From contig JASCQW010000061.1 in assembly GCA_030264375.1 (NCBI GenBank), positions 84,627,343 to 84,691,342 of the forward strand: a stretch of DNA of 64,000 nucleotides, read 5' to 3'. Positions within the stretch are counted from its first letter, which is position 1. Every line of letters starts with the position of its first letter. The notes under the pieces are model-generated. The model searched no databases. It was not told the origin of the DNA and saw only the letters and a program-made list of their open reading frames with translations. The stretch is from Carcharhinus longimanus (taxonomy: Eukaryota). The position numbers and the translations under genes are program-made. Shown here piece after piece: positions 3,300 to 49,925 of this stretch.

Positions 3300-3570
3300 G
3301 GTGACATGGTGGCACAGTGGTTAGCACTGCTGCCTCAGAGCGCCGGAGACTCGGGTTCAATTCCCGGCACAGTCTGCATGGGTTTCCTCCGAGTGCTCCG
3401 ATTTCCTGCGAAAGACATGCTGGTTAGGTGCATTGGCCATGCTAAATTCTCCCCCAGTGTATCCGAACAGGCGCCGAAGTGTGGTGACCAGGGGATTTTC
3501 ACAGTAACTTCATTGTAGTGTTAATGTAAGCCTACTTGTAACACTAATAAATAAATGTAAAGCTTAAACT
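3300..3570 (+). mobile_element. tRNA-derived V-SINE (HE1-like head, alternative 3' tail)
   Basis: A-box TGGCACAGTGG, B-box GGTTCAATTCC, V-domain GGGTTTCCTCCGAGTGCTCCG, tail ...CCTACTTGTAACACTAATAAA. Confidence 0.85.
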
Positions 3571-4314: not shown

Positions 4315-5100
4315 GATTTGCTTATGCTAACTGCCTCACTTTATTTGATGCTGAAATCCTCACCAGTGTACTTGTTACCTCTGGACTTGGCTATTCTAAT
4401 CCTTCCTCTGGCCATCCTCAGATCTCCCACTATACACAAACTTGTGCCCATCAAAGACACCACCACCATTCATCACTGGATGTGGCAGGACTGCAGAGCT
4501 TAGATATGACCCTTCCATTGTGGAATTGCTTAGCTTTGTCTATTGCATGCTGCTTATGTTGTAGCTTCACCAGGTTGACACCTCATTTTTGGGTGTGCTT
4601 GCTGCTGCACTTAGCATGCCCTCCTGCGCTCTTCACTGAATTCACACTAAATCCTGTTCACCCATCATCCCTGTACTTGCTGACCTGCAGTGGCTCCCAA
4701 TCCAGCAATGCCTGGGTTTTAAAATTCTTACTCTTGGCTCTTAAATCTTTCCATGGCCTCTCCCGTCTCTAACTGTGTAACCACATCTACCCTTTCAAAC
4801 CTTTGACATCGCTCTGGTCCTACATTTCTAATCTCTTGCACATCCTGAGTTTTAATCTCTCCATCATTATGGCTGTATCTTCAACTGCTATGCTCTAAGC
4901 ACTGGAATTTCCTCTCAAAACTTCTCCATCTCTACTTTGCCTCTTTTACAATACTCCTTAAAACCAACATCTTTGACCAAACTTTTCTTCTTCTGACCTA
5001 ATACCTCCTTTGGTGGACAGAGGGTCAAATTTTGTTAGATAATATTCATGTGAATTGCTGTGGAATGTTTTAATATGTTCTTGGTGCTGTGTAAATGCAT
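4315..5100 (+). mobile_element. L2-type LINE 3' fragment
   Basis: CCTGTTCACCCATCATCCCTGTACTTGCTGACC...CTCCTTAAAACCAACATCTTTGACCAAAC; similar to 52150-52735. Confidence 0.65.
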
Positions 5101-5169
5101 GTTTTAATTTGATTTATTATTGTCACATGTATTAGTATACAGTAAAAAGTATTGTTCTTGCGTGCTATA
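5101..5169 (-). mobile_element. Rex1/Babar LINE 3' terminus (left part of a split copy)
   Basis: TTTGATTTATTATTGTCACATGTATTAGTATACAG, as at 20657, 40278 and 63196; the element resumes at 6002. Confidence 0.8.
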
Positions 5170-5530
5170 GGGAGGAAGTGATAGCCTAATGGCATTATAG
5201 CTAGATTATTAATCCAGAAACTTAGCTAATGTTCTGGGACCCGGGTTCAAATCTCACCAAGGCAGCTGGTGGAAATTGAATTCAATAAAAAATATCTGGA
5301 ATTAAGAATCTGCTGATGACCATGAAACCACTGTTGATTGTCGAAAAACCCATCTGGTCCGCTAATGCCCTTTAGGGAAGGAAATCTGCCATCCTTACCT
5401 AGTCTGGCCTACATGTGACTCCAGAATCACAGTAATGTGGTTGACTCTCAACTGCCCTTGACTAACTAGGGATGGGCAAAAAACGCTGGCCAGCCAGAGA
5501 CATTCATGTTTCATGAATGAATTAAAAAAA
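5170..5530 (+). mobile_element. tRNA-derived SINE, family B (GGAAGGAAATCTGCC core, LINE-derived tail)
   Basis: B-box GGGTTCAAATCTC, core AGGGAAGGAAATCTGCCATCCTTACC...GTGACTCCAG, tail ATGAATGAATTAAAAAAA; other copies at 40820 and 45846. Confidence 0.8.
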
Positions 5531-5539
5531 ATACACTTC

Positions 5540-5577
5540 AACTCTGACGGAGAGTCATCCAGACTTGAAATTTTGGT
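5540..5577 (+). ncRNA. Degenerate Penelope-type hammerhead ribozyme remnant
   Basis: CTGACGG-A-GAGTC/ATCCA/GACTT-GAAA; same stem II as the Penelope ends at 26520 and 48960-49020; core A9 mutated. Confidence 0.5.
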
Positions 5578-5660
5578 ATCAGGATGGCCGAGGGGTCTAA
5601 GGCACTGTGTTCAGGTTATAGTTTCCTCTGGAGGCGTGAGTTCGAGTCCCACTCCTGATA
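5578..5660 (+). pseudogene. tRNA-Leu(CAG) copy, probably a pseudogene
   Basis: 83-nt type II cloverleaf: acceptor ATCAGGA/TCCTGAT, anticodon CAG at 5612-5614, long variable arm, T-loop TTCGAGT. About 12 mostly transition differences from the recalled vertebrate tRNA-Leu-CAG, including an A-C mismatch in the T-stem. Confidence 0.85.
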
Positions 5661-5668
5661 TTGATTTG

Positions 5669-6001
5669 GGGCGGCATGGTGGCACAGTGGTTAGCATTGC
5701 TGCCTCATAGTGCCAGGGACCCGGGTTCGATTCCCAGCTTGGGTCACTGTCCGTGCGGAGTTTGCACATTCTCCCTGTACCTGCGTGGGTTTTCTCCGGG
5801 TGCTCCGGTTTCCTCCTACAGTCCTAAGATGTGCAGGCTAGGTGGATTGGCGATACTGAATTGCCCCTTAGTGTCAGGGGAACTAGCTAGGGTAAATTCA
5901 TGGGGTTATGGGGATTCTGTCTGGGTGGGAATGTGGTCGGTGCAGACTCGATGGGCCAAATGGCCTCCTTCTGCACCGTAGGGATTCTAATATATTCTAT
6001 A
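5669..6001 (+). mobile_element. HE1 V-SINE, full length
   Basis: tRNA head (TGGCACAGTGG, GGTTCGATTCC), V-domain GGGTGCTCCGGTTTCCTCC, CR1-like tail GATGGGCCAAATGGCCTCCTTCTGCACCGTAGGGATTCTA. Confidence 0.9.
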
Positions 6002-6210
6002 TAGGCAAAGTATACTATTCATAGAGAAGGAAAGGAGAGGATGCAGAATGTAGTGTTTCAATCATTGCTACGGTGTAGAGAAAGATCAACTTAATGCAAG
6101 GAAGATCCATTCAAAAGTCTGATAGCAGCAGGAAAGAAGCTGTTCTTGAGCTGTTTGGGATGTGTCATCAGACTTTTGCATCCTTTTCCCGATGGAAGAG
6201 GGTAGAAGAG
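6002..6210 (-). mobile_element. Rex1/Babar LINE (right part of the split copy)
   Basis: Continues the 63186 copy from the point where 5101-5169 stops (...GCAAAGTATACTATTCATAGAGAAGG). Confidence 0.8.
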
Positions 6211-43904: not shown

Positions 43905-45100
43905 ATAATGTTTGAGGAGGTAACAAGGAAGTTGGATAATGGAGAACCAGTGGATGTGATTTATTTAGATTTCTAGAAGGCCTTTGACAAGGTGCTGCAA
44001 AGGAGATTGTTAAATAAGTTAGGTGCCCATGATGTTAAGGGTAAGATCTTGGCATGGATAGAGGATTGGCTGATTGGCAGAAGGCAGAGAGTGGCGAGAA
44101 AGGGGTCTTTCTCAGGATGGCAGGCAGTGATGAGTGGTGTGCCTCAGGGGTTGGTGCTGGGACCACAACTTTTCACACTATACATTAAGGATTTGGAGGA
44201 AGGAACTAAAGGCATTGTTGCTAAGTCTGCAGATGATACAAAAATATGTAGAGGGACAGGTAGTGTTGAGGAAGTGGGGGGGTTGCAGTAATACTTGAAC
44301 AGGTTAGGAGATTGGGCAAAAATATGGCAGATGGAAAACAATGTGGAAAAGTGTGACTTAGGAATGGAGGCATAGACTATTTTCTAAATGGAAAAATGCT
44401 TACGAAATCAGAAACACAAAGGGACTTGGGAGTCATTGTTCAAGATTTTCTTAAGGTTAACGTACAGGTTCAGTCGGCAGTTAGGACAGCAAATGTACTG
44501 TTAGCATTCATGTCAAGAAGGCTAGAAGACAAGAGCAGGGATGTACTTCTGAGGCTGTAAAAGGATCTGGTCAGTCCCCATTTGGAGTATTGCGAGATGT
44601 TTTGGGCCCCATATCTAAGGAAGGGTGTACTGGGCTTGGAAAGAGTCCAGAGGAGGTTCACAAGAATGATCCCTGGAATGAAGAGCGTGTTGTATAAGGA
44701 ATGGTTGAGGACTCTGGGTCTGTACTTGTTGGAGTTTAGAAGGATGAGGGGGGATCTTTTTGAAACTTGTAGGATACAGCAAGGCTTAGATAAAGTGGAC
44801 GTGGAGAGGATGTTTCCACTGGTAGGAAAAACTAGAACCAGAGGGCACAACCTCAGGCTAAAGGGACAATCCTTTAAAACAGATGAGGAATTTCTTCAGC
44901 CAGAGGGTGGTGAATCTATGGAACTCTTTGTTGCAGAAGAGGCCAGGTCATTGAGTGTCTTTAAGACAGTGATGGATAGGTTCCTGATTAATAAGGGGAT
45001 CAGGGATTATGGGGATGAGAAAAATATCAGCCATGATTGAATGGCGGAGCAGACTCGATGGGCCATGTGGCCTAACTTTGCTCCATGTTTTATGGTCTGT
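43905..45100 (+). pseudogene. CR1 LINE, 5'-truncated; decayed reverse transcriptase ORF2 plus 3' UTR
   Basis: DVIYLDF*KAFDKV, SGVPQGLVLGP, KSADDTK (FADD motif altered), LERVQRRFTRMIPGMK; contains stops and frameshifts. Confidence 0.92.
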
Positions 45101-48717: not shown

Positions 48718-49925
48718 GTTATGAATTTTGCCAGGTGGGTTGAAATCCTGGCGTTGGCCTCAATTTCAGATTGGGAACCCAGAAGTGACTATGGGGGGTA
48801 CATCCCTTTTCCTGGAAGTGGCTAAGTACAGACCCTGTCCCATTCAGAATGGTGTACAGGTTCCAACAAGGGCTGCTGGAATCTGAAACAAAAACAGAGC
48901 AATGCTGGGAAATCTCCCCAGGTCTGACAGCATCTGCGGAGAGAGAATAGAGCCAATGTTTCGAGTCAGGATGACCCTCTGTTAGCTCAGAGCTGATCAA
49001 AGGTCATCTAGACTTGAAACATTTGCTCTACTCTATCTCTGCAGATGCTGTCAGACCTGCTGAGGTTTTCCAGCATTTTTCTCCAACGAGGCGAGGTTCT
49101 GTTCAAGGCATCCCTATCCATGGGTAGGGATGCTGGTCTCTTTCACAGAATGGACTCTATTGAGGAGTCAGTAGCAGGACAGTCAGTGACATCATGGAGA
49201 GGTGCCTTTAGTAGGAGGGCAGTAAAGGCTATTGCAGCATGACCTAGATTAGTGGAGGCATCAGCTCCTAAATTGCTGGATTGGCATGCCCTTCTGCTTT
49301 GGGAGACTAGGAGCAGTGATTTAATGCTGGTAACTGAATATTACGCTGCATGTGGTTCATGGCTTGGACCTCCTGGTATGAAAGCACCTGCACTACGTTT
49401 CTGGGCTCCTGACACAGTGGGGGCCTGTATGCCATTGGAAATATTACAATACAATTCCACAGTAAAGTGTCCTNNNNNNNNNNNNNNNNNNNNNNNNNNN
49501 NNNNNNNNNNNNNNNNNNNNNNNNNNNNNNNNNNNNNNNNNNNNNNNNNNNNNNNNNNNNNNNNNNNNNNNNNCACAGTAAAGTGTCCTAATTGGCTATC
49601 TACTGCAGCTAGGTTTCTGCTTCTGGGAAAAACCCATGGAATGGGAACATGTTGCAGAGCCAACCTGCCTCATTGATCGTACATTCTTTGTCAGTGTCTT
49701 ATTAATCACAATGTTGAAGTTCGATGGCAATCACATTGTTAAACAGGTGATGGGTATTTGTACTATGAATGGGGATAACTGGGACACTGTGGTGTTGGAG
49801 TTGTGCTGACTGTGAACTAAGTCAGGAAACAGCTGTGTCTTTGTTTTAACTTCATCAGCCGGCATGGATTGACTAACATTCCTCACCTACAAAACTGTGA
49901 CCCCGGGGCTGGGAAAATTCAGCCC
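48718..49925. mobile_element. Non-autonomous PIF/Harbinger-like element (about 1.2 kb)
   Basis: TIRs GTTATGAATTTTGCCAG / CTGGGAAAATTCAGCCC, inserted at a TAA. Confidence 0.5.
48875..49085. mobile_element. Penelope-like palindromic element with two divergent hammerhead remnants
   Basis: Arms CAGGTCTGACAGCATCTGC..TTTCGAGTCAGGATGACCC / GGTCATCTAGACTTGAAAC..GCAGATGCTGTCAGACCTG. Confidence 0.7.

Follow-up and report, generated by a model that had tools for sequence, protein, structure and literature searches.

In the 64,000-nucleotide stretch of the Carcharhinus longimanus genome analysed here (the window), the 3' end of a Rex1-like LINE is broken at one point by an insert of about 830 bases, which lies on the plus strand, opposite to its minus-strand host, and joins a SINE, a hammerhead-bearing repeat fragment, a tRNA copy and a second SINE end to end. 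We interpret this block as the product, with a probability of roughly 0.7, of serial end-to-end template jumps onto three separately made nascent Pol III RNAs during one insertion. A CR1-type reverse transcriptase would have primed on the tail of the second SINE (HE1), copied it as far as its first base, and then switched to an unprocessed pre-tRNA-Leu(CAG), landing on the U-ended 3' end of that RNA. A second jump would have carried it to the 3' end, likewise U-ended, of a SINE read-through RNA from a donor locus, L048, with joining to the host as the last step. HE1 is likely to have been the primary template that primed the insertion. We infer the order of copying, jumping rather than ligation, termination at a T run and the identity of the enzyme. 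The block itself is a dead, inert one-off, one of dozens of such RNA chains in this genome; the contribution made here lies in the traced donor and the multi-RNA chains, the locus being of value as one case, with two jumps and a traced origin, of a process that recurs.

Table 1. Features of the composite block and its host, in window positions.
Feature	Position	Strand	Evidence
Left part of the split host, the extreme 3' end of a Rex1-like LINE	5100..5169	-	matches three other window copies
5-base target duplication, left copy	5165..5169	.	host gap -5 and sequence
Full-length tRNA-headed SINE (SINE-B), first part of the read-through RNA	5170..5530	+	80% to donor copy L048
Transduced right-hand copy of the donor SINE's 9-base target duplication	5531..5539	+	8/9 bases match
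Penelope-like minimal-hammerhead repeat, front; core mutated	5536..5574	+	junction and core change also at L048
Junction bases, likely pre-tRNA 5' leader (or three more repeat bases)	5575..5578	+	comparable 4-base leaders in several chimeras and in genes L011, L176 and L206; inferred
Decayed tRNA-Leu(CAG) copy without CCA	5578..5660	+	ARAGORN and Rfam
Pre-tRNA 3' trailer ending in a T run	5661..5667	+	27 copies carry this trailer type, before various partners
Full-length V-SINE (HE1) with LINE-like 3' tail	5668..6001	+	many window copies
5-base target duplication, right copy, overlapping the SINE tail repeat	5997..6001	.	host gap -5
Right part of the split Rex1-like host, with a 5' truncation near 6210	5997..6210	-	host-pairing comparison

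Comparison with uninterrupted host copies reveals that the two host halves, together spanning about 5100–6210, are contiguous there, and that the halves on either side of the block overlap by 5 bases (best gap −5 among 17 host pairings), indicating at the level of sequence an interruption at one point. A first-pass annotation, made from the letters alone, had placed the split of a Rex1 3' end between 5169 and 6002 and had noted a 5-base repeat on both sides, the right copy overlapping the HE1 tail; both observations agree with the host gap, and the end of the HE1 tail does overlap the target. Two longer copies of the host family carry PF09004 after the reverse transcriptase (E 7e-13 and 6e-8), a domain typical of Rex1/Babar, in line with a placement of the family there. 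The four modules of that annotation, all on the plus strand, are likewise confirmed in the sequence at their coordinates. Its inventory was incomplete, in that the 7-base trailer (5661–5667) and the 9-base donor flank (5531–5539) form separate modules.

These results support a single insertion event ending in the HE1 tail, and the same test extends to other chimeras. Among 52 chimeras examined, 14 are testable, having a left flank within a repeat with local copies, and in 7 of these 14 the host resumes beyond the whole chimera, as it does at gap −5 in the window. Overlaps of 5–6 bases are present in four of the seven, one of them L168, where another Leu chimera sits within a Rex1-like end. Host continuity is not confirmed for L102, L139, L183 and L039, which have no suitable host copy locally, and a bulk test for target duplications is negative, with at least 7 bases in 3 of 30 chimeras against 7% by chance.

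The first RNA of the block comprises SINE-B and the hammerhead piece. SINE-B, a name taken from the first-pass annotation for an element that we take to be SacSINE1/Deu-like, lies 12% from a local consensus of 13 copies and contains no run of four T (5170–5530); the sole four-T run of 5170–5577 is 5571–5574, at the end of the hammerhead piece, which also coincides with the predicted ribozyme cut position. The annotation had described a hammerhead remnant at 5544–5570. Such a piece is present, and it proves to be the front (about 5536–5574) of a common dispersed repeat, presumably Penelope-like, with no Rfam match and no significant fold (z 0.15). It holds a single motif with a changed core, and so lacks the features expected of an active ribozyme or retrozyme (intact core, helix III or tandem partner).

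Outside the window, the SINE/hammerhead junction was found at a single locus, L048 (a search in which 8 of 8 candidates were scored); exact junction patterns gave 3 and 9 matches, the others among them being unrelated. The core change of the hammerhead is common to the window and L048 and is found in 3 of 22 repeat copies. At L048 the SINE is bounded on both sides by a 9-base target duplication, the left 9 bases of which match window 5531–5539 at 8 positions, and to the left of the window SINE there is no copy of this duplication, only the right-hand one being retained. Since the window holds the right-hand duplication alone, it is the window that was copied from L048, or from a near duplicate of that locus; and since the window piece also begins at SINE base 1 and stops at the four-T run, it derives from a read-through RNA of the donor. 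By its sequence, the SINE plus hammerhead piece is a Pol III read-through (3') transduction from L048, with donor and direction both specified. The two SINE bodies are weakly sisters (support 0.76; 10 shared changes versus 3–9 among 13 copies). L048 today carries just three T at this putative terminator; the fourth T, which 3 of 22 repeat copies have, may therefore be a later change. Termination at the T run appears preferable to ribozyme cleavage as the origin of the 3' end, because the core is changed, no stable fold is found and single minimal hammerheads show no cleavage in vitro (PMC4209133).

Directly after the hammerhead, L048 contains a run of 100 N, the usual gap length here (5 of 12 gaps in the window and 22 of 40 in the loci), and contigs from four runs that match the left side of the donor do not reveal its content; one of them, from organism B, covers the donor SINE/hammerhead junction and extends 20 letters beyond the hammerhead. 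On the far side of the gap, the HE1 belongs to another subtype than the window HE1. Within L048 587–1921 (G000:C146, about 741,070–742,410), two HE1 copies bracket the donor segment; their first 50 bases are identical and a single uninterrupted L2-like host surrounds both, so a misjoin or recombination at this locus is probable. A short motif after SINE-B tails (103 matches versus 11 in the control) was also considered as a family extension and rejected, the downstream sequence being heterogeneous in all loci inspected; we take it as chance behind a very common tail, and L027 and L146 are therefore not counted as donor copies. Elsewhere in the window (48896–49082), the hammerhead-bearing repeat forms an inverted pair with 93-base arms 1 base apart.

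The tRNA-Leu(CAG) copy at 5578–5660 scores 38.3 bits in Rfam and is the only gathering-level Rfam match and the only ARAGORN gene in the window, both programs agreeing with the earlier description of a tRNA without CCA or poly-A. It has 88% identity to intact genes and an unpaired anticodon arm, which mark it as a pseudogene; an intact cloverleaf with terminator is absent, the trailer offering a three-T run only. The trailer type recurs in 27 copies with many partners, namely 8 HE1-tail SINEs, 6 V-SINEs with another tail, 5 SINEs that are truncated or unassigned, a second tRNA in one case and non-SINE sequence in 7, the last being mostly LINE 3' pieces (labelled by eye) with differing breakpoints. 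The trailer is retained across these different partners. No SINE adjoins the genes L011, L176 and L206, which are intact or nearly so and have related trailers, and the exact source gene of the window trailer was not found among 21 distinct exact gene-end matches and 42 DNA matches.

Several other Leu(CAG) arrangements are present in the genome. At L010/L086 (G000:C554:2516–2950), a perfect tRNA-Leu(CAG) directly precedes a four-T trailer and then an HE1 that is heavily decayed (71%); L009 has the same trailer as L010. This locus is either a tRNA gene that arose by retroposition and was maintained by selection, or a gene that received a SINE at the terminator. L190 (1404–1588) contains a decayed Leu(CAG) pair, head to head and inverted, with a long T trailer on each. 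At L195 (1505–1680), a Leu(CAG) copy and an unassigned piece lie within a duplication of roughly 20 bases, unlike the short overlaps of the SINE chimeras, and this block was possibly made by another enzyme.

The third module, which we take to be HE1, following the first-pass annotation, has a tail resembling the end of a reverse transcriptase-bearing LINE at window 43977–45095. A pairing of HE1 with HER1 is given in a table row of PMC3747384. The junctions of the block recur only in part. In addition to the SINE/hammerhead joint at L048, the tRNA/HE1 joint is spanned by 12 other loci among the 30 examined, none with an upstream SINE or hammerhead (DNA search with 5470–5720, 40 of 1538 candidates scored). 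The hammerhead/tRNA joint, by exact pattern, is found only in the window (2 matches, the second unrelated), and exact patterns, which can miss decayed copies, reveal no second copy of the whole block.

The HE1 3' parts of chimeras with the window trailer type do not cluster (7 changes versus a shuffled mean of 6.8 in a tree of 85 with 7 labelled rows), a comparison of low power because the tree is star-like and, among the labelled rows, L069 is falsely included and L185 missed. Descent of the tRNA-HE1 copies from one master is not seen, one trailer occurring with two tail types and with LINE partners.

A genome-wide survey indicates that the window block belongs to a recurrent class. The V-SINE/HE1 start motif has 51,344 matches in the genome, and an exact-match pattern placing a T-arm motif shortly upstream of these starts gives 72 sense matches and none for the reversed-pattern control. 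The Rfam tRNA threshold is reached by 19 of the 72 sense matches versus 0 of 30 antisense controls (p 7e-4), 18 of them adjacent to the SINE and the other being L102, through its second tRNA; three further sense matches score 26–28 bits, the best antisense control reaching 22.5. Rfam replaced ARAGORN for this purpose because the latter made many spurious calls at a lowered threshold. Inspection by eye recognises about 40 tRNAs among the 72 matches, which we assign, in part tentatively, to the isotypes Leu, Pro, Ser, Lys, Arg, Thr, Cys and Asn. None of 17 tRNA/SINE spacers opens with CCA, and a three-T run is present in 11 of the 17 versus 10 of 48 other SINE starts (p 0.002).

In these chimeras the small RNA lies 5' of the retroelement 3' end on the same strand, and the pieces run from the transcription start to the U tail, not into the gene flank. 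For example, four chimeras of the Leu(CAA) gene family L075/L088 retain its leader of 5–7 bases, its intron and its trailer, with the outer flanks lost; their trailer is that of L075, their intron is closer to that of L088, and they carry two different SINE tails, the L075/L088 genes themselves adjoining no SINE. Intron-bearing Pro genes are also present in the genome, and their introns persist in chimeras. Leader and intron are thus retained in sister chimeras, whose ends are those of primary Pol III transcripts.

Multi-tRNA chains are also present among the loci. L102 joins three tRNAs (Leu, Arg and Lys) through T-rich spacers of 11–16 bases to a V-SINE, and L139 and L183 contain two tRNAs each, both L183 trailers being found also in single chimeras.

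Some features accompany this set. Intact-looking tRNA-Pro genes with introns of 13–15 bases occur at L272, L273, L278 and L281–L283. In L157, L162, L163, L166, L167 and L169, just the last 12 or so tRNA bases and the trailer precede the SINE; a cut near the T-arm fits stalling of the reverse transcriptase after a jump. U2-like 5' pieces lie near or within chimeric blocks at L105 (1–46; Rfam, 40.7 bits) and, by eye, upstream of the Lys copy in L103.

The main rival to serial jumping, which we regard as unlikely, requires RNA ends that these RNAs should lack, nascent pre-tRNA and full-length SINE RNA being expected with 3'-OH and 5'-triphosphate ends. In it, an RtcB-type activity would first ligate the RNAs into one molecule, which would afterwards be retrotransposed by way of the HE1 tail; the cyclic phosphate could have come from a hammerhead cut. 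U6/L1 chimeras do arise by such ligation, with the same DNA end product (PMC6789731); jump and ligation are indistinguishable in DNA, and the hammerhead piece stops at the predicted cut position. However, the reaction needs a cyclic phosphate and a 5'-OH, and is strongly lowered by a 3'-OH or a 5'-triphosphate (PMC6789731). Moreover, window and donor alike carry a changed ribozyme core, single minimal hammerheads are inactive in vitro (PMC4209133), and hammerhead-to-SINE joints are rare, two of the three matches being nested insertions.

The remaining alternatives differ in where the modules were brought together. The first-pass annotation had proposed a single read-through transcript carrying all modules, and its single insertion ending in HE1, as well as read-through for SINE and hammerhead, survive. 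A donor with SINE, hammerhead, tRNA gene and HE1 already in a row is nevertheless quite improbable: a donor for the SINE/hammerhead joint exists with an HE1 beyond its 100-N gap, but that HE1 is of another subtype in a probable misjoin, and at L010, where an intact Leu(CAG) gene stands immediately ahead of a decayed HE1, the trailer differs. In the window, the modules are also separated by a run of four T, the hammerhead/tRNA joint was found by exact pattern nowhere else, and the one trailer has many partners, with related genes lacking an adjacent SINE. Successive insertions at one spot, the SINE-hammerhead first and a tRNA-HE1 chimera later right behind it, have very little to commend them. 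The genome is repeat-dense, the 5-base duplication is short and overlaps the tail, and at L069 an HE1 has inserted into the hammerhead-bearing repeat with a 6-base duplication; yet no host bases or second duplication lie between the modules, the SINE-hammerhead RNA would have had no priming tail at its end, and the module divergences, a comparison that the annotation had suggested, are similar (about 10–12%). Its other proposal, a multi-module Pol III retroelement amplifying as a unit, is barely tenable despite the 12 further tRNA/HE1 loci among the 30 examined, given that exact patterns, able to miss decayed copies, yield no second whole block, and that partners and junction bases vary among copies without clustering.

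Serial jumping places the shark chimeras beside several known systems. Template-switch chimeras of U6 with LINEs and SINEs (L1, L2, RTE and AnolisSINE2; PMC4476161) likewise set a whole U-tailed Pol III RNA, in sense, before a retroelement 3' part, with many partners and non-L1 clades. Unlike them, the shark set captures unprocessed pre-tRNAs of many isotypes and SINE read-through RNA, its partner is often a full-length SINE, and its chains reach four RNAs. Primate tRNA/LINE-1 chimeras (bioRxiv 10.1101/2025.02.02.635956) also join tRNA and retroelement in one event, but the 21 loci described there are mostly antisense tRNA halves, whereas the shark copies are whole sense precursors with leader, intron and trailer. 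Human pre-tRNA retropseudogenes (Schmitz 2004, cited in PMC4476161) share the precursor template, implying nuclear recruitment, but are described as L1-made, and SINE chains do not figure in the account given there. Serial end-to-end jumps have been described for the non-LTR reverse transcriptase of Bombyx R2 (PMC8594491), in vitro and with an engineered enzyme, in contrast to the genomic fossils and presumed CR1-type enzymes here. Template switching has also been invoked for SINE origin (PMC5499810). A literature search, with subscription journals mostly outside its coverage, returned no published description of precursor-tRNA chains on shark SINEs.

A broader reading, which we advance tentatively and at slightly under even odds, is that shark CR1-type reverse transcriptases routinely relay from the SINE 5' end through the local pool of U-ended nascent Pol III RNAs, comprising pre-tRNAs with leader and intron as well as SINE read-throughs, in chains of up to four RNAs. 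The chimeras might then be in vivo serial-jump fossils beside Pol III sites, and the process could directly give rise to new SINE heads and, from time to time, to functional new tRNA genes (L010). If so, the serial jumping known from R2 in vitro, and used in sequencing methods, would have left many dated examples in a vertebrate genome, made by another enzyme clade. Retained leaders, introns and trailers would imply capture in the nucleus before tRNA processing and would record old Pol III start and stop sites, SINE head exchange would gain a concrete first step, and the choice between jump and ligation would become testable on substrates that RtcB should not accept. In practical terms, chimeric tRNA copies inflate tRNA gene counts.

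Additional variation is seen among the V-SINEs themselves. A second tail type, present in L004, L005, L106, L168 and the window at about 3300–3560, ends, by eye, like the 3' end of the Rex1-like host, which suggests a different partner LINE. In L091, L092, L097, L099, L040, L114, L136 and L143, 3'-truncated SINE-B heads lie directly before V-SINE starts, and these could be nested insertions or captures.
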